In this document: piece by piece, positions 2,116 to 31,333 of the stretch
Numbering within the stretch: position 1 is the stretch's first letter
How the letters are laid out: each line of letters starts with the position of its first letter
Virus record (IMG/VR): IMGVR_UViG_3300021142_002226
Location: 32,001 to 96,000 of that record
Reading direction: 5' to 3' (one strand)
Length of the DNA: 64,000 nucleotides
From: a virus
Made by a program: the position numbers and the translations under genes
The notes under the pieces: model-generated
What the model was told of the DNA's origin: nothing
The model's input: the letters and a program-made list of their open reading frames with translations, nothing else
Database searches by the model: none

Positions 2116-5100
2116 TTATATTGTAAATTGGTTTGGTATTGTAAAATGGCTTGTTTTTGTTCCATTCAAACCATTAATGTTTAATGTTATTAATTCATTT
2201 CTTGTAACATTTGGTAATATTACAGTTCTTGTTTCATTTGTACCACTTATACTTGATGATGATACCACCTGAGCTGTACTTATAGGATTGTTTGTTGTCT
2301 TATCAAATAATGAAACCGAATTGTAATATGCACTATCAAATATTGATGAAGAATTTAAAATACTATAAGTAAAGGTTAATGTCAATGTGTCATTAGGTGC
2401 CACGTTGATTACCTGGTCAAATACAGAACCACTATTTAAGGTAGATGAACCTGAAACACTTCCAGAAGAACTTGTCCACACAGCATAAACTGGTGAAGCA
2501 CCATTTTGATTCACGATGACTCTGATGTTGTAACCATATACAAATGTTGATGGTGAGGATACAACATTTTGAGCCATTAAGCTCGAATTTAACGTAGAAA
2601 GTAAAGCAACGTTTGATTGGAATAGAATACCAAAAATTATGGACGCACTATGAGAACATGGATCGCTTATACTTAATTTAGCGATAAATTCGCCTGTTTT
2701 AGGTAAACCAACAACATCTATATCAAAATAATAATCCAAGATAATATCGCTTCCAGCAAGTCTGTAACCCACAGAACCGTATTTCTTGACACCATTTAAA
2801 GTGTTATCTTTTGCATCATAATATTTATCCAACGCATTTTTTAATCTCGCATCTACACCATTATTAACCACACCATTTATTGTGGTACCTGTAAAATCAT
2901 GATTAGTGAAATTTGGTTTTAACGTTAAATTATTTCTGTAGATATACAAATTATTTTTAACAGCATCAGTTAAATCGTAATTGTCTGATTCATAAACACT
3001 TACTTTAGTTCTATCTTTATAGAATTTGAATGATTCAACAAGACAGAAATCAGATTTTGACCAATTTGCCGTATCCTGGAATGGTAATAATGTCATAACA
3101 GAAGCAACATTACTGATGTAACTATAAAGAACACCTCTTGATACAGCATATTTATAAACATGATATAAAGAATATTGATTATATGTTCTTGTTAATGAAA
3201 ACTCTCTCGGACAATTTATAGCACTACCGTTGCATAAATATTCAAATATTGGTGAAAAGTTTTCATTATAATAATCACTTACAAAACATCCAGGCAACCC
3301 AGAAGGATCATAATCATAACTTCTATTATAGGTTGCATTTATATTATAGTAATACCTATTAGGTATTGATGATTCAGTATAACCAGTTATTAAATTATTA
3401 TTAGTTGTAAAACCAGCATGTGTTATATCAGAATTGTTCATGATATAATCACCTACCACGAAAGGTGTATTAAAATAAGTTGATGAATTGGCGAATTTAT
3501 AATATTTGAGTACGTTAATTTGGTTAATTTCACCTATATCAATATATGTGGAATAAGATGCAATTGTTCCTGTAGAACCTGTCGGTACCTGAGCATCGTA
3601 ATCTGAACCACCTACATTAGTAAGTTCTTGTAATTTCCATCCTTTCAAATTTCCTAACGAGTCTGCTGGAATTAAATTTGGTAAACGTATTGCTGTATTA
3701 AAATCTCTTCGTGGTGTACCAGAGTAAGGCCCAGGGTAACTGTTGAAAGGGTTTGTTGCATTAAATACTGTACCACCAGTGGTTAATGAAGTCCAGTGGC
3801 CGTAAGTGTTAGTAATAGGATCATCTGAAAATGAAAATGGTACAGAACTACGTATATTTTTATACAATTTATAATCATTTACATTCAAAGCTATAACAGT
3901 ATCATGACTATTCCATATTCTACCGTTTGAATTTCCAGTTACACCAGTATAATATATCATTGGTTTATTATATATAAACCTATATATGTTACCAGCATAT
4001 AAAACTAAATTACCAAACGATAAATTAAGTGTGGAACCTGTTTCGATATAATTTATTGTATTATCGTTTGTGAATGGATATATATTAGTTTGGTTAACAT
4101 GATAATGAAAAACTCTTTCATAACCCCAAGGACTAAAATTCTTTGGATCAAATTTCGTTAATTCTTCAAAACATGAATGTGAACCATTAGGTTGATATAT
4201 TTCATTAATCTTGTATGGTACAACCGTAGTTCCAGATGTAATTTTATAACAATGGTATGGTGTAATATCTTCAACGCAAACATATAATCTATCAACGTTT
4301 ACTGTTTTAATACTATAAGTCCCACCTGTACTTACAACAACCGTTTTGTAATTGTTAATTGTCACTTTAACAATGTCATTGAGATTATAATTCATAATTG
4401 CAGGATTGAAGTATTCAGCTACAGATAACATTTGTTGATATATATCTGTACTGTAAACTTCATTTTCCAACTCATAAGTTGTGCCTGTAATTTGAACTCT
4501 TCTTGTACCATAAATATTATTGGTGTTATTCAAGTCAAGTCTTGTATAATCTAAAATACCAGAATCATATGCTTGAAAAAGTTGTACACTTTGAGTGTTA
4601 CCAGTACCAATAATAGTTTTATTATTTAAAGTTGATTTAGACGGTTCGTATGTGCTATAATTATCAACTGTAAAGTATCTTCTACCAATTTGTTTACCAA
4701 TTATGATATTATTTGTAACCGAACCACCTTCGTAGAATTCTGGTACATTACCAAGATAATAATCAGCTGCTGTTATATTATAAACGCTATCAGAGGCATA
4801 ATATCCTTTAGTTGACGGTATACTATATGGTAATTTTTTCGTTATAATATTAAAATTGAAATCTACTTTATCATATTTAATATCTTTATCATATAATGTT
4901 TTTTGTTGATCAGTAATTACAGGATCATTTGTTAGTTTTTTATAGTAATCAACATACAATTTATTATACATCAATACAGGATCTGTTGAGTGATTATATG
5001 CAACTCTTGGTGTATTTAAGAAATAATAATTTGTATATGGTGAACTATCACTATATGTGTAATTATCCACACCAACAATAGAATTTGTTGTAGTTGTACC

Positions 5101-22865: not shown

Positions 22866-25800
22866 TTAGAAAATTTTTATTAAAAAGTCATCATTTTCTG
22901 TGATTTCCTTAGCCTCTTTCCATGTACCATCAACCATCATAAATTTATGGTTTGGTGTACATTCAATAACAGTACCATCTTCCATAACAAATTCTATTGT
23001 TTCCTCATAACCATTTACAAACAACTTAGTTATAGTTTTTTCTTCATTTAGGTAATTATAAACTTTAATATCTTCTGTAACATCGTACCATTCACGATAT
23101 TCATTTAGTTTAGTACCCAAGTCAACACCATTTAATTTGAATATATCATCAAGTGATAACGTACCCCTATTTGTTCTAATTTCAGTAGATGGTATTTGGC
23201 AACCTGATGGTTTAACTGTTGTTGTTCTTGCGGCAGCATTTATACCTATAATTGCCGCAACACGAGCATTTTCTTCTTTTACAAGTTTAGCTGCTCCCTT
23301 AATATCGTAGTTTAATACAATACCAGAACCGATACCTGTCATTCCTACACCAATTAGAGCCTCTTTTTCAGTAGTTCTTTTCCAAATCTCACGAAGATAA
23401 TGGAAGTCTGTATAACCAGCCTGTAATGTACCTATAAATGCGGCAGCTTTAACTCTTTCGTTGTAGTCTTCCTGAGATTCAATATTTGAAACATTTACCT
23501 CACATAGATTACAGAATTGATATGGTCTTAGTGCAATTTCGCAACAGTTACCTGTAATTAATTTAGAAATTTGAAAACAATGTGTTGAATCAAATACAGA
23601 AATATCCCAAACATCCTCATATATATTTGTTAATTCAACGGATTCAACCTTTATTTGTTTATCATCATGAATATTATATCTAAATTTATAAGAATCTAAA
23701 ATATCTTGTTTATATTTATTTGTTAATTTAAACAAGGAAATAAAGTGTTTTATTGAACTTGTTTCACATATTCTTAAATCATATCTTGTAAATTCACTAT
23801 CATAACCATCTAATTTAGATTTAGATGTTTTTATTTTAGATTTTATACCGTAGAAACCTAATAATTCAGATAAATCATCCACTAATTGTTTATGTGAAGA
23901 TGTAAATGTTATTCTTTTTTGTGTTTTACTTACATTTCCATCTGAACTGAATAATGCATCAACTAAGCCCTTTCTAAAATTTTCTGAACCATCAACCCAA
24001 ACCGACTTAGGTAAACCATAGTTTTTATCCACATTACCAAACTTTTTAATATATAAATCAACCTCTTTATTATTTATAGATATCTCTTTTGTGTGTGTAT
24101 CAACAAGAACTATTTGCATCTCCTCCTCAATATTTTGGTGTTCCTTTTTGAATCTACGATTAAAATTACCATTAAATGTTATAACATTTGTTTTTAATGT
24201 ATTTAATAATTTATCGGATATATTAGATTCATCATCAGTGTCGGATACTATCATACCATATTCTGAATGTTCTTTTCTATTTGAAACCCAACCATCACCA
24301 ATAATCCAACCACATAAGAAACCATCATCATACCCACCTAAATTACCATCAAAAAGTTTATTCTCTCTAATTATTGGTAATTTATCACCGTTTGTTAAAT
24401 CTGGTGTTTTAACTTTAACATACTTTTCACCATCCCAAACGGGCCATTCATGTTCCTTAGTTGCAAAATATTCGGTACCATCTTCAAGTGTTAACTTAAC
24501 AAGTTGCTGATTTTTACCAGATAACCAACATTTTGCATCAGATATTTCACCATTTAAATTTTTAACTTTAAAACTTTTATCTTGCAACTCCTCAATAGGA
24601 AAAATCCCTTCTGTTGTTAACACTTTTGTACCTGCCCTTAACGATGGGTTGGTACCCCAATCCTTATCATTTGTGAAATAAATACCAGGTTCTCCAGAAC
24701 CAGACAACTTGATTCTCAACCAAAGATCATCAAAGAATTCTTTAGTTATTTTATGTCTTAGTAACACGGCAGAATTATTCGCTCTACCTCTTTGAGGGTT
24801 ATTTTCCCACCATGCACCAGATTTACAAGAAATCATTTCATCATCGTCAGCGGAGAATAAACAAATTAGTGCCGCTCTACGGATACCTCCTGCAAGTACT
24901 GCATCTGCAATATAACATACAATATCATGAACTTGAATTGGCGTTAATTTTTCACCATCTTCTATAGTATCTAATATTTTTTTAATATTATGAATACAAT
25001 CTTTAAGTGGTTGAGGCCCTGGAGCTTTACCACCAGATGTAATCAATCTTGCACCTTTTGGTCTAATATCTGAAAAATCGAATACTGGTGTTGAAGAAAT
25101 ATCACCTGTATATGATTTTAACAAGGTTTTGATAGCGTCAGCCCATCCTTCAATTGAATCAGATATCAAAAATCTTCTGTTTCTTGTTGGGTTTGGTTTT
25201 CTTATTTCTGGTAATTTTTCTACGTGATGTCTTTGTACTGAGTAACCAACACCAGTACCACCAAGCAATAAAAACATTACTTCACTAAAGCAATCAATGT
25301 AGTCTATTGGTAAATAACAACAGTTACCAGTCACAATACCACCAGATAAAACAAAACTTTTATCATCCTCAACTTCAAGACACCACACATCTTCTGATAC
25401 AAATGAATCATTAACTTCAGTCATAGACCAAGATGTGTTTGGTCTACTACCAATGTGATTTGTTATTGAAAAATCTTTAGTTAATGGTCGTTCACCAAAA
25501 TTTGTTATTTCACCTGTTAAATCAGAAATATTTGTAATATAATAACCACAAACCTCCAAATATTTTTTAAGAAAATCTATATGATCTTCCTGTGAAGATT
25601 GTATAGATTTATATTTAGATAATGTATTATTTTCATACCAATCTGGGTTTTTAGCACCGTCAGCGGATAAATAGCCATCCATAAAGGCTTTTATCATATT
25701 TAAACCATCTATATTTATATCTGGTGTTGTTTTTAAATATTTACCAGTATAAACCATAATATCCCCATCCAAACTATTAGAGGTAGATGTTTCAAACCCC

Positions 25801-26507
25801 ATTTCTTTGAATCTGTAAAGATATTTAGTTGCCTCATCTCCACACAATCTAACCATAGAATATTTAGCTTCACCATTCTTTTTAAGAAGTGTACCATCGC
25901 CAAATACATAACCATAACACCAATATAATCTTTCCATAGGTGTTGCACCATTATAGTCAAAATTTTCATTTTTTTGTGTTGGAAAGAGTGGTTTATTCAA
26001 TTCAAGTTCGGTTGTTTCAGAACCATCAAATAAAATCCATCTATGGTTTTTGGTAACTCTGATGGTTTTTTTACTTTTACCCCTACTAAAGGTGGCTGTT
26101 GATAGAAACTGTTTACCATAATTTTTAACAACGGCTGATTTCCAACTACCAGTATGTGTTAAAACAGTTATAATATCTCCATGTTCAAAATCCTTAAATG
26201 ATTTTGTTCCCTCCGATGTAATAAATTCAGTTTCCCTACCAAAACAGTTGTATATTCTGTTTGGTGAAATTTCAATTGGTTTACCGCCAAATTGAAGTGA
26301 TCTCATAGAAGGTAATACTTTTTTGTCATATACAAATTTGTATTTTTCTATAATTTCATCTCTTAACATAGGAAATTTCTTAATATGCATTTCCATGTTT
26401 CTTGTTACTAAATCTTCCCAGCTTTCTCTTCTTTCTTTCTCTGGTAAGTACTTGGCATACTTCATGTATACCGTAATGTCGCTTAAAATTTTTTGTGATA
26501 TATCCAT
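22866..26507 (-). CDS. nrdJ: Class II (B12-dependent, RTPR-like) ribonucleotide reductase N-terminal fragment with two cis inteins and a split-intein N-half
   Basis: PSMRSLQFGG, RIYN|C, GGTGVGYSV, GGIRRAALI, GEPG, TNP|CCEI, VKPSG|. Joined exteins plus the C fragment total about 619 aa. Confidence 0.92.
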   Translation of the reverse strand: MDISQKILSDITVYMKYAKYLPEKERRESWEDLVTRNMEMHIKKFPMLRDEIIEKYKFVYDKKVLPSMRSLQFGGKPIEISPNRIYNCFGRETEFITSEGTKSFKDFEHGDIITVLTHTGSWKSAVVKNYGKQFLSTATFSRGKSKKTIRVTKNHRWILFDGSETTELELNKPLFPTQKNENFDYNGATPMERLYWCYGYVFGDGTLLKKNGEAKYSMVRLCGDEATKYLYRFKEMGFETSTSNSLDGDIMVYTGKYLKTTPDINIDGLNMIKAFMDGYLSADGAKNPDWYENNTLSKYKSIQSSQEDHIDFLKKYLEVCGYYITNISDLTGEITNFGERPLTKDFSITNHIGSRPNTSWSMTEVNDSFVSEDVWCLEVEDDKSFVLSGGIVTGNCCYLPIDYIDCFSEVMFLLLGGTGVGYSVQRHHVEKLPEIRKPNPTRNRRFLISDSIEGWADAIKTLLKSYTGDISSTPVFDFSDIRPKGARLITSGGKAPGPQPLKDCIHNIKKILDTIEDGEKLTPIQVHDIVCYIADAVLAGGIRRAALICLFSADDDEMISCKSGAWWENNPQRGRANNSAVLLRHKITKEFFDDLWLRIKLSGSGEPGIYFTNDKDWGTNPSLRAGTKVLTTEGIFPIEELQDKSFKVKNLNGEISDAKCWLSGKNQQLVKLTLEDGTEYFATKEHEWPVWDGEKYVKVKTPDLTNGDKLPIIRENKLFDGNLGGYDDGFLCGWIIGDGWVSNRKEHSEYGMIVSDTDDESNISDKLLNTLKTNVITFNGNFNRRFKKEHQNIEEEMQIVLVDTHTKEISINNKEVDLYIKKFGNVDKNYGLPKSVWVDGSENFRKGLVDALFSSDGNVSKTQKRITFTSSHKQLVDDLSELLGFYGIKSKIKTSKSKLDGYDSEFTRYDLRICETSSIKHFISLFKLTNKYKQDILDSYKFRYNIHDDKQIKVESVELTNIYEDVWDISVFDSTHCFQISKLITGNCCEIALRPYQFCNLCEVNVSNIESQEDYNERVKAAAFIGTLQAGYTDFHYLREIWKRTTEKEALIGVGMTGIGSGIVLNYDIKGAAKLVKEENARVAAIIGINAAARTTTVKPSGCQIPSTEIRTNRGTLSLDDIFKLNGVDLGTKLNEYREWYDVTEDIKVYNYLNEEKTITKLFVNGYEETIEFVMEDGTVIECTPNHKFMMVDGTWKEAKEITENDDFLIKIF
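22869..23201 (-). mobile_element. Split intein N-fragment (IntN, 111 aa)
   Basis: Starts CQIPSTEIRTNRG after KPSG, has block B ECTPNHKF, and ends at a stop with no C-terminal splice motif. Confidence 0.9.
23547..24644 (-). mobile_element. Intein with LAGLIDADG endonuclease (366 aa, Ser1...GN|C)
   Basis: SLRAGTKVLTTEG; ATKEHEW; FLCGWIIGDG and GLVDALFSSDG; DVWDISV...LITGN|CCEI. Confidence 0.92.
25323..26246 (-). mobile_element. Intein with LAGLIDADG endonuclease (308 aa, Cys1...GN|C)
   Basis: CFGRETEFIT; VTKNHRW; YGYVFGDG and FMDGYLSADG; DVWCLEV...IVTGN|CCYLP. Confidence 0.92.
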
Positions 26508-27980: not shown

Positions 27981-28427
27981 TTAACCAAGTTTATATTCTA
28001 AATAATTCAATTCAAGATTTTCTGTTTTAGAACATAACACTCGTTGTACACTTGTGATTATTTTATAGATATGCTCTCTGATGTCTACACTATATCTTAC
28101 AGTAGCTGGATATATTCGTGCATCAAATTCACGGTGAGCAATTTCTTTACCATTCATTTTTATTGTAAAAACAAACATATCACTATGTTCATTTTGTTCA
28201 AATGATGGGTTGTTAGTGTAATTGTTTCTGTTTTCATTCATAAAATCAAGAGTCTTATTTTTAAGGGATTCCTGAATTAGTCTTATGTTATCGTCAATAA
28301 CATATTTAAAATCTAAACTGTTCACAGCTTTATTATTAAAACCGAAAACATTAAACAATCTTTGAACAATAATATGTTCGTTGAGTTTCAACGTAAACTC
28401 AAAATTACGCTCTTTTCTTTCTTCCAT
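27981..28427 (-). CDS. Hypothetical protein
   Basis: 148 aa ORF starting 4 nt after the orphan copy of the exonuclease 3' end. Confidence 0.7.
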   Translation of the reverse strand: MEERKERNFEFTLKLNEHIIVQRLFNVFGFNNKAVNSLDFKYVIDDNIRLIQESLKNKTLDFMNENRNNYTNNPSFEQNEHSDMFVFTIKMNGKEIAHREFDARIYPATVRYSVDIREHIYKIITSVQRVLCSKTENLELNYLEYKLG

Positions 28428-28431
28428 AATC

Positions 28432-28503
28432 TTATATTTTTTTAGTTTTGAAGTAATTTTGTTCCTTCTTTATAATAGTAATAAAAGTTGACCAAAAAAC
28501 AAA
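28432..28503 (-). repeat. Displaced copy of the exonuclease 3' end (23 codons plus TAA)
   Basis: Translates FVFWSTFITIIKKEQNYFKTKKI*, identical in protein to 29257-29328, with 13 synonymous nt differences. Confidence 0.95.
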
Positions 28504-28504
28504 A

Positions 28505-29209
28505 TTATTTGTTTTTATTTTTTGCCCATCTTTCTTTAGCTTTCAAAGACATTTTTTTCTTAGTCTCTTCAGACATATTTTTTTTAGATTCAGACATTTT
28601 TCTTTTAGTACCTTCACTCCTTTTTTTTCCAATATTACTTTGAGAAATTTTTAATTTAACATCTTCAGTTATGATAGTACCTTTTTTAATATCTGACATC
28701 TTTTTTTTATATTCTTCACTTCTGTTCAAAGCGGAAAATCTAATTTTTTCTTTAGTTTCATCCGACATCTTTTTTTTAGATTCAGACATCTTTTTTTTCG
28801 TATCTTCAGAGTGTTTTTTACCTAACTGACCATCAGACATTCTTTTTTTAATATCGTCAGAAACAATCTTACCTTTTCTTGCCTCAGACATCTTTTTTTT
28901 TGTATCTTCATTATGCCATCCACTCCAACCACCATCACCATTTTCAATTTTTAGGTTTGCCCACTCTTCTGATTCAACAATATTATATAATTGACTGTAA
29001 TAAGTACCTTTCTCTTTTATCTCATCATTATTATAACCCACAAATAAAATTTCAGTTATAATATCTTTTGTTTTTATTTTGTGTTTTTTTATATGATTTA
29101 GCCAAACTAAACCACTACCTATATATTTGAAGGGGTCTTTTATGGTTTTTCCCAAATATTTTAAACCTTTTGGACTTGTTTTAATATAAAGATATATTTT
29201 TTGTTTCAT
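28505..29209 (-). CDS. GIY-YIG homing endonuclease with NUMOD3 repeats
   Basis: IYLYIKTSPKGLKYLGKT...WANLKIENGDGG, then eight (H/R/M)SE.TK.KMS-type repeats. Confidence 0.88.
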   Translation of the reverse strand: MKQKIYLYIKTSPKGLKYLGKTIKDPFKYIGSGLVWLNHIKKHKIKTKDIITEILFVGYNNDEIKEKGTYYSQLYNIVESEEWANLKIENGDGGWSGWHNEDTKKKMSEARKGKIVSDDIKKRMSDGQLGKKHSEDTKKKMSESKKKMSDETKEKIRFSALNRSEEYKKKMSDIKKGTIITEDVKLKISQSNIGKKRSEGTKRKMSESKKNMSEETKKKMSLKAKERWAKNKNK

Positions 29210-29256
29210 ATTTATAATTTATTATAAATATAAGATGACCAGTAAAAGATTAAAAG

Positions 29257-30282
29257 TTAGATTTTTTTAGTTTTAAAATAATTTTGTTCTTTTTTGATTA
29301 TAGTTATGAACGTACTCCAAAAAACAAAATATTCATCGTCATAACTTGGAATATAATTTATAATTCCATCTTCTTTTATCATTTTCATTACTGAATTAAT
29401 CCCACCTCTACCTTCTGGATCCATTGGCTCATTAACCATAACACTTATTGTTTCCATTAACTCTTCAGTTACATTCGGCGATTCAAGATTAATAATCTTG
29501 TTCATTACAGCAAAGTAATCGTTACCATATGTACCCCATTTTGTTTTACCTTCAACAATTGTTTTCAACATATTATTGTCAGGTTTTTCACTTAACAATT
29601 CATTTGTACGTTCAATTATCCAATCAGAATCTTTTTTTTCTTTTCTCAATTCTGGAAATAATTTCAACGTTTTTTCTTCACCAATGTTTTGTAAACCAGA
29701 AATATTATCACTGCTATCACCAGCAATCATTTTTATTAATCCAACATTACCTTGATGATAATCAAAATAAGTATGAAAATTTTTATCTGTTATCACAACC
29801 TTTTTATTCAAAAGATATATTTTAACATCTTCAGATATTAATTGTAATAAATCTTTATCCGAACTCAATATTAATTTGATTTCGTTTGGTGAATTTTTAC
29901 AGTAATAAGCAATACCGTCATCAGCTTCACATTCAGCAACTTCAACTTGGCGAATATATAACTCCTCAAGGTATTGTTTAATTCGAATACGTTGTCTACC
30001 AAGATCATAAATTTGTTCTTCAGTATATTGTGAGTTTCGATTTTGTTTGTAATATGGATAATATCCTTGACGATATTTTTTTGAGTTTTCACCTTCCCAA
30101 AACACCACAACCTTTGTTATCCCATATTCGGAATAAAATCTTTTTATGGTGTTTATAAAATGAAAAATGGCACCAACACTACCATTTTCTGTTTGGGTAT
30201 TTTTGGTGCCATGAAATCCAATCTTTAGCAAATTCTCACCATCAATCAACAAACTGTTAACCTTAGGTTTCTTAATCTTCAT
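29257..30282 (-). CDS. 5'-3' exonuclease / flap endonuclease (T4 RNase H, PolI N-terminal-like)
   Basis: LLIDGENLL, YYPYYKQNR, EADDGIAY, SSDKDLLQL, IAGDSSDNISG. The start is probably the ATG at 30282, overlapping the recA stop (track gives 30312). Confidence 0.9.
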   Translation of the reverse strand: MKIKKPKVNSLLIDGENLLKIGFHGTKNTQTENGSVGAIFHFINTIKRFYSEYGITKVVVFWEGENSKKYRQGYYPYYKQNRNSQYTEEQIYDLGRQRIRIKQYLEELYIRQVEVAECEADDGIAYYCKNSPNEIKLILSSDKDLLQLISEDVKIYLLNKKVVITDKNFHTYFDYHQGNVGLIKMIAGDSSDNISGLQNIGEEKTLKLFPELRKEKKDSDWIIERTNELLSEKPDNNMLKTIVEGKTKWGTYGNDYFAVMNKIINLESPNVTEELMETISVMVNEPMDPEGRGGINSVMKMIKEDGIINYIPSYDDEYFVFWSTFITIIKKEQNYFKTKKI

Positions 30283-31333
30283 AATCAATTGTTCCTCTAT
30301 CTTCTGTTTCAATAATTTCTAAATCATCAACATTATCAATTACCTCACCCATTTTTGCAAATTGAGATGCGATATAATTCATATGTTCTAATTTATATTT
30401 TGCGATTGCTTCTTTACCCTCATTATTTTCTTTACTACCACGTCTGTCACTTTTTAGGAAACCTTGTGGTGTAATTATAATGTTTGAATCTTTATATCCA
30501 AGACCAGTGATGTGATTTTTATCTACAGTGATTTTACTTCTAACAGCTATGTTAATAGTTCTACCGTTTTTAGTTGCATCAATCTTTGAAATACCAGATT
30601 CAGCTTCATTACCAAAGCGGAAAACAAGTGTAGATGATTGGTATAATGCTTCACCACCTTTTGGTTTCATCTTAGGTTGTGCACCATAAACCAATGGAAT
30701 TTGTACCCAAGGTAAATTACATACAACTAACCCAGCAAGATAAGGTGAATTTTCTTTTCTTGTTTTATTGATTCTTTGGTTTATACCCATATTGATTTTC
30801 TCAGCAAGAACACCAGCGGTATGTTGTTTACCACCTTTACCTTCATAAGTCATTTTACATGGTACTGAACCGACAGAATCCCAAAAGAAACAAACATCTC
30901 TTTTTAATTTACCTGATTCTTGTGCATCAAGAACTTTATTAATTTTTTCAGTAACTAATTCTATCCAATCAAGTTCATCGAAATAAAGAAAGTCACCAAT
31001 CCAATCTTGTTTTTCTTCATCCCAATCAACCTGGAAACCCATCAATTTAGCATGTTCCCATGACCATTTCTTTTCAGTTATAAGAAACACAGGCATGATA
31101 CCTTTCTTTTGCGCATCCACCGCTGAAGCAATAAGTGCACTTGTCTTACCAGCATTTGAATGCCCTATAAACATGTTAATGTGTCCCATTGCAGGGCCTG
31201 GGAGACCTGTTGCTTCTAAGAATGCTTCACCACATTCAAGAAATAAATCTGGTTTATATTTAGTTGTACTCACACCAAGTTCTTTCTTTAAATCATCAAG
31301 TGAGTATTCAGTTTTTTTAATGCCTTTAGCCAT
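30272..31333 (-). CDS. recA: RecA/UvsX-like recombinase
   Basis: Walker A GHSNAGKT, FFWDSVGSVP, KPKGGEAL, KITVDKNH. Confidence 0.88.
   Translation of the reverse strand: MAKGIKKTEYSLDDLKKELGVSTTKYKPDLFLECGEAFLEATGLPGPAMGHINMFIGHSNAGKTSALIASAVDAQKKGIMPVFLITEKKWSWEHAKLMGFQVDWDEEKQDWIGDFLYFDELDWIELVTEKINKVLDAQESGKLKRDVCFFWDSVGSVPCKMTYEGKGGKQHTAGVLAEKINMGINQRINKTRKENSPYLAGLVVCNLPWVQIPLVYGAQPKMKPKGGEALYQSSTLVFRFGNEAESGISKIDATKNGRTINIAVRSKITVDKNHITGLGYKDSNIIITPQGFLKSDRRGSKENNEGKEAIAKYKLEHMNYIASQFAKMGEVIDNVDDLEIIETEDRGTIDYED

Follow-up and report, generated by a model that had tools for sequence, protein, structure and literature searches.

The closest described counterparts of the locus analysed here are the mORF 'gene hybrids' of fungal mitochondrial genomes, found in atp6 of Allomyces macrogynus and in atp6, atp9, cox2 and nad3 of Glomus (PMC3630166), together with partial C-terminal duplications of atp6 and cob that lie beside GIY-YIG or LAGLIDADG ORFs (PMC6279837). 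Home-and-rescue (HomeR) gene drives have been engineered (PMC7968924). Among phages, intronless homing is described for the free-standing T4 endonucleases SegF, SegG, SegB and MobE (PMC155333, as cited in PMC8351571), and in Aeromonas phage Aeh1 the nrdA gene is split by mobE (PMC1851037, as cited in PMC8351571). As far as that citing account goes, the present element resembles mobE of Aeh1 in that a homing endonuclease gene of a phage occupies an essential replication-related gene without abolishing its function, but the Aeh1 nrdA works as two polypeptides, whereas the exonuclease gene considered here is whole through a replacement tail. With the T4 Seg and Mob genes it shares the character of a free-standing GIY-YIG-type gene between phage genes, with a patchy distribution in syntenic relatives. 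These T4 genes spread by double-strand-break repair with co-conversion of the flanks, and immunity is due to polymorphism of the target sequence, all of which we infer for the phage cassette as well. To our knowledge, the T4 genes occupy sites between intact genes without any duplication of a gene end, whereas the phage cassette is inserted inside a coding region and carries a spare end.

The DNA analysed is a 64,000-nt stretch (the window) of a 190-kb IMG/VR phage record. With a probability of about 0.8, an ~825-nt homing cassette, in which a replacement tail and a spacer precede a GIY-YIG/NUMOD3 endonuclease gene, has been inserted 23 codons before the stop codon of an exonuclease gene in a large uncultured freshwater phage (Table 1). 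As in the mORF hybrids, the endonuclease ORF is situated towards the 3' end within a conserved gene, the C-terminus that came with the insert is read in frame and used, with the native one displaced downstream (in the window and in the related alleles L023 and L058), the displaced copy is the closest to the native ends of relatives while the inserted copy is not (L058, L023 and codons 1-11 in the window), and the DNA of the inserted copy diverges with the protein kept. The initial annotation had likened the locus to elements of fungal mitochondrial atp6, and its layout indeed matches that of the hybrids. It differs from them in residing in a tailed phage and not in a mitochondrion, in having a replication exonuclease as its target, in the small size of the duplicated piece (only 23 codons), and in offering a population series from clean site to bare scar along with an invariant 15-nt block that points to the target. 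The phage cassette hence works like the hybrids without being a member of that group, as it is found in a phage and not in a fungal mitochondrial genome. Like HomeR, it is a nuclease cassette in an essential gene carrying a recoded 3' rescue, which is here presumed to be cleavage-resistant, but HomeR is synthetic, CRISPR-based and used in insects, whereas this cassette is natural with protein-based recognition. The literature covered, which was mainly open-access and included PMC10448857 and PMC8351571, gave no instance of a phage element that brings along a spare gene end.

Table 1. Features of the exonuclease locus, with positions numbered along the window
Feature	Position	Strand	Basis
UvsX-like recombinase gene	30272-31333	minus	
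5'-3' exonuclease / flap endonuclease gene (RNase H-like replication nuclease)	29257-30312	minus	PF02739, phrog_107
In-use last 23 codons and stop, putative replacement tail	29257-29328	minus	repeat; comparison with L058 and L023
Codons 7-11 of the in-use tail; 4 synonymous differences from the clean-allele block	29296-29310	minus	
AT-rich spacer of 47 nt, from exonuclease stop to endonuclease ATG	29210-29256	minus	
Free-standing homing endonuclease gene, 705 nt, 234 aa	28505-29209	minus	phrog_314, NUMOD3, fold match
Orphan copy of the last 23 codons and stop	28432-28503	minus	repeat; L035 match
15-nt block TTTATTACTATTATA in the orphan	28471-28485	minus	clean-allele comparison
Next gene, 148 aa, no family match	27981-28427	minus	
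DnaB-like helicase gene	beyond the 148-aa gene in order	minus	

All genes of this stretch are on the minus strand. The exonuclease matches Pfam PF02739 at 4.6e-28 and is assigned to the exonuclease family of PHROGs; its start is placed at 30282 by the gene callers, as compared to 30312 in the table. Across 1017 homologues its tail is conserved in protein, with W322, F325, I329, K331 and E332 invariant. The in-use tail and the orphan translate to the same 23 residues followed by a stop, and their DNA differs at 13 of 72 positions, every change being synonymous: one Ser codon is altered at all three bases and ten other codons at the third base. A repeat search returned them as a direct pair of 74 nt with 82% identity, 825 nt apart. 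The orphan begins 1 nt past the endonuclease stop codon (28505-28507) and ends 4 nt short of the ATG of the next gene (28427), and no start codon was found upstream of it in its own frame. Both the duplication with its 13 synonymous differences and the tight spacing on either side of the orphan had been pointed out in the initial annotation, and they hold exactly, including on coordinates. The 47-nt spacer contains a T4-late-promoter-like octamer that overlaps the endonuclease ATG; this spacer is missing from the L058-type cassette. Immediately beyond the helicase gene lies a ribonucleotide reductase ORF of 1213 aa (window 22866-26507), in which intein-like inserts are present.

The relatives of the locus were collected by scanning IMG/VR with the exonuclease protein and with a profile, which yielded ~45 distinct alleles of 41-78% protein identity. 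All of them have the order UvsX-like recombinase, exonuclease, 148-aa gene and DnaB-like helicase, and the endonuclease gene is present in the window's lineage only, so that its presence is patchy among syntenic relatives, with degenerate copies. In most alleles 0-10 nt separate the exonuclease stop from the next ATG, and in all clean relatives the 148-aa gene directly follows the exonuclease. The closest clean allele, L035, has 77% protein identity to the window. Codons 1-11 of the orphan are identical in spelling to those of L035, whereas the in-use copy differs in 6 of 11; over the whole tail the contrast is modest, with 5 nt different in the orphan and 9 nt in the in-use copy. It had been proposed that empty alleles should run straight into orphan-type sequence and that element-free relatives with the in-use version would speak against an insertion; the clean relatives do run into such sequence, and in the diagnostic codons they have the orphan-type and not the in-use spelling. 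A donor with the in-use spelling was sought with the exact in-use 24-mer, which in IMG/VR occurs only in the window's own lineage, and an exact 21-mer from the 3' end of the endonuclease gene matches only this lineage and L058. A DNA search of the phage GenBank collection gave no match and its protein matches reach only ~30% identity, to SPO1-like Bacillus phages; hence, there is no cultured close relative. A metagenome scan with the exonuclease returned nothing closer than the IMG/VR relatives.

The direction of the exchange can be read most directly from pairs of clean and invaded alleles. L057 (clean) and L058 (invaded) have 98-99% nucleotide identity, and L058 contains 138 extra nt placed exactly before the first repeated codon. 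This insert starts with a 69-nt tail, in which the first 15 residues are kept with many synonymous changes and are followed by a different ending, and continues with an endonuclease remnant in which the initial 15 nt are fused to the final ~50 nt of the gene; the two parts are homologous to the window gene, as confirmed by the common exact 21-mer. Downstream, L058 has an intact L057-type tail, 2 nt different, joined to the next gene. The second comparison involves L023, which is ~93% identical across the region to clean L013, L019 and L027, and whose tail is foreign from ~4 codons ahead of the repeat. After a further 34 nt it contains a decayed L013-type tail copy, which matches at 60 of 72 nt, is interrupted by an in-frame stop and has precisely the same junction with the next gene as the clean alleles, and this scar scores best against the L013, L019 and L027 tails and worst against its own in-use tail. 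In both L058 and L023 the downstream copy is therefore the tail of the clean sister, which identifies it as the resident copy and the in-use copy as imported. The cassette tail is in frame and encodes the same peptide from different codons, and the resident tail is displaced yet still joined to the next gene. By analogy with these two alleles, the in-use tail of the window is best taken as the foreign copy; a codon-usage likelihood did not tell the two copies apart and marked neither as foreign. The two comparisons thus agree with the initial proposal of an element inserted inside the gene that brings a foreign, recoded C-terminus and displaces the resident end. The in-frame identity of 23 codons exactly at the gene end, along with the comparative data, excludes chance as its source.

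This site has been invaded repeatedly. When a maximum-likelihood tree is built from the exonuclease body, six separate positions among 29 clean alleles are taken by invaded ones, and well-supported branches force at least five changes; the same nucleotide position has been invaded in at least six lineages. Spacers of scar alleles retain traces of the native tail: those of L023 and L006 align to it over its full length with a score reached by 0 of 500 shuffles, those of L058 and L080 have a score reached by 0 of 300 shuffles, and those of L009-12 and L017 (not significant alone, p ~0.2-0.3) have a junction motif in common with L023. The 5' scar parts of L023, L006 and L009-12 have derived changes in common, along with an identical junction behind the endonuclease stop. 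Different stages of decay are represented by the intact endonuclease gene of the window, the dead gene of L003 (6095-6260, corresponding to window 29063-29209) with an ATG to ATA change and a 13-nt deletion, the internally deleted gene of L058, and the bare scars without endonuclease gene in L023, L009-12, L006 and L080. This sequence series indicates that the endonuclease gene decays and is lost, while the respelled tail and the scar remain. The initial annotation had regarded the intact orphan as a sign of recent insertion. The orphan is indeed intact, but the insertion predates the split of the window and L003, whose gene is already dead, and part of the orphan is apparently kept for a non-coding reason; hence, its intactness does not necessarily mean a very recent event. 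In the scar allele L017 (3020-3115), the exonuclease stop is lost and the frame continues into the decayed orphan, with about a dozen residues added. Truncated endonuclease homologues are also found elsewhere (P0125-P0127). Two combinations of endonuclease and exonuclease homologues, P0124 (81% identical) with P0008 (78%), where the longest contig of both sets is 7660 nt, and P0243 (truncated, 74% identical) with P0040 (66%), where it is 19900 nt, probably represent further invaded lineages.

Within the tail, codons 5, 6, 12 and 13 vary freely in clean alleles of the clade, whereas codons 7-11 are spelled TTTATTACTATTATA in 26 of 29; among the other three, two have a non-synonymous change only and one also has a single synonymous change. 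From the codon usage of the window, the probability of this spelling is ~0.02. In the in-use tails of all six invaded lineages the block has 1-4 synonymous changes, while the window and L058 orphans retain its resident spelling. In the non-coding scar of L023, the block is kept at 15 of 15 positions together with the last 18 nt before the next ATG, and the parts between have lost 25-30% of their bases; such preservation in a non-coding scar suggests a constraint on the DNA and not on the codons alone. Judged from these spelling patterns, the block is probably part of the endonuclease recognition site and a candidate for the target core. It may also serve as a control, promoter-like element of the next gene, which we consider as a lead. 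The octamer CTATTTAT, which is like the core of the block in the orphan, occurs 8 times on the coding strand of the window and six of these sites lie 12-46 nt upstream of ORF starts (minus strand, 60517, 55185, 52304, 22839, 21075 and 20423), making it a candidate phage promoter motif. A scan for sigma-70 promoters and terminators was uninformative in this AT-rich DNA.

The respelling of the block is where the strongest competing explanation departs from the favoured one. An ordinary intergenic endonuclease could have inserted with one-sided illegitimate repair that duplicated the native tail of its donor, the spelling then being neutral with no role in immunity; this differs from the main reading only in whether the respelling is selected. 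Indeed, the two copies of the window have the same codon at 12 of 23 positions, which is no different from the 53% seen as background when the window and L035 are compared, and such a duplication could begin at the cut through annealing of an unresected end. Besides, flanking duplicates are absent from ~40 of 42 loci with homologous endonucleases, only L139 having one, which implies that the spare-end layout is not general to the endonuclease family. However, the boundary is the same in six lineages, and the block is changed in six of six invaded lineages as compared to one synonymous deviation in 29 clean alleles, which leaves a wholly neutral duplication as an unlikely, although still serious, explanation. 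In L139, an endonuclease homologue with 45% identity (2992-3558, plus strand) runs antisense to a metallophosphatase-like gene (3555-4214, minus strand), inside its 3' region. Part of this gene occurs on either side of the homologue as a 60-nt direct repeat (2853-2912 and 3637-3696, 95% identical); L139:2813-4214 is a second spare-end case with another target gene.

The common derived changes in the scars also bear on the polarity of the event. A direct repeat around an insert is formally symmetric, and it can be argued that the in-use tail is the resident one and that the spacer and the endonuclease gene were inserted just after the exonuclease stop with a passenger tail fragment, all the more as changes common to the scars of L023, L006 and L009-12 make part of the orphan seem to travel with the cassette. 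This reverse polarity is improbable, because in L058 and L023 it is the downstream copy that matches the clean sister with its native junction while the in-use copy is divergent, and in the window the block invariant in clean alleles sits in the orphan and not in the in-use copy. Even less probable is continued expression of the orphan, for instance as an extension at the C-terminus of the endonuclease via a +1 shift on the A6 run that precedes its stop codon, a notion to which the intact orphan peptide and its +1 frame relative to the endonuclease in the window and L058 lend some appeal; no known shift signal is present, the frame match has a one-in-three chance, and scars lose coding capacity quickly, what persists being limited to the 15-nt block and the last 18 nt. 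An assembly artefact or a chimera of two co-occurring strains, which a metagenome-derived contig with copies resembling two alleles might bring to mind, can be practically dismissed, since three assemblies from different samples (the window, the 100% identical L002 and the ~97-98% identical L003, in which both repeat copies are unchanged) have the same structure base for base at both copies and decayed versions are found at the same position in other lineages.

The product of the inserted gene matches the homing endonuclease family phrog_314 of PHROGs at 1.3e-16 and Pfam NUMOD3 at 4.8e-12 in six stretches, NUMOD3 being the sole Pfam family seen, and its homologues contain NUMOD1, an I-HmuI NUMOD-like domain and an I-TevI DNA-binding domain. 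The GIY-YIG profile PF01541 did not match the window protein even at E 10 and matches 2 of 36 homologues at E 0.04, and a sequence search of the PDB with the endonuclease gave no match. An AlphaFold model built from the 36 homologues has a mean pLDDT of 89.9 (86-98 over residues 1-90), and its residues 4-88 superimpose on the I-TevI catalytic domain 1LN0 with Z 8.2 and an rmsd of 2.6 A over 80 of 92 residues, followed in the list of structures by other GIY-YIG nucleases, PD-T4-3, the UvrC N-terminal domain and T4 EndoII. A Foldseek search with the whole model returned nothing, and the GIY-YIG fold came from a wide VIA search. Residues Y8, Y18, G20, W36, H39, N85 and E89 are invariant across the 36 homologues, and over residues 31-39 the family keeps G-S-G-x-x-W-x-x-H. 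Going by the modelled fold and these motifs, the protein is assigned an N-terminal GIY-YIG domain followed by NUMOD3 repeats; the GIY-YIG label of the initial annotation is thus borne out by fold, but the Pfam domain is not called. The position before W36, which we take to be the site of the I-TevI catalytic Arg, is variable among homologues and occupied by Leu-Val in the window protein. As PF01541 does not match and this Arg has no conserved counterpart, activity is not assured, and nuclease activity is assumed in what follows. The gene also has an internal tandem duplication of 168 nt, 73% identical, over the NUMOD3 modules (window 28551-28910), which fits DNA-binding repeats expanding by recombination.

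Returning to the favoured homing cassette, the finding that six lineages carry the insertion at one nucleotide position hints at site-specific cleavage of alleles without the element. During mixed infection, the enzyme would cut the clean allele at or near the junction, and repair would copy the cassette from the invaded genome, using the exonuclease body as homology arm on the left and the orphan together with the next gene on the right. The inclusion of the orphan in the right arm would explain the common derived changes and the same junction in the 5' scar parts of different lineages. The recognition site is predicted to span the insertion point and to include the 15-nt block. The in-use copy would then escape cutting because the block is respelled, and the orphan because the end of the endonuclease gene has taken the place of its left half; in addition, control signals of the next gene are probably preserved in the orphan. 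As to the first origin, one-sided illegitimate repair at the cut is plausible and would place this cut at the first repeated codon. That the element removes its own cut site by respelling is likewise plausible, and the respelling could in part reflect neutral divergence of a donor lineage, or a relaxed constraint on the control element once the orphan supplies the block.

What is new here comprises the at least six invaded lineages, the full decay series and a block that is respelled in every invaded allele. Physiologically, the cassette might act as a natural 'home-and-rescue' phage drive, aimed where a conserved protein tail and the control element of the next gene overlap, an interpretation that we put forward tentatively and at somewhat below even odds. 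If it is true, the duplication solves both problems at once, as the exonuclease stays whole thanks to the spare tail and the signals of the next gene are retained in the orphan. The respelled tail would then outlive the endonuclease and leave permanently immune scar alleles in place of sites that can be invaded again, so that the usual cycle of gain, decay, loss and regain would be broken and three allele classes would be present in the population. More generally, the locus illustrates how a free-standing homing endonuclease can enter an essential phage coding region at no cost to the host, in a manner distinct from introns, inteins and genes-in-pieces, and it would constitute a natural counterpart of engineered rescue drives with the same recoded-rescue design. 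The clean, live, dead, deleted and scar alleles along with the predicted 15-nt target core provide a ready test set. For phage genomes at large, the tails of core genes can be foreign, which calls for caution since phylogenies and gene calling are affected, and short 'spacers' between genes may be what past invasions have left behind.
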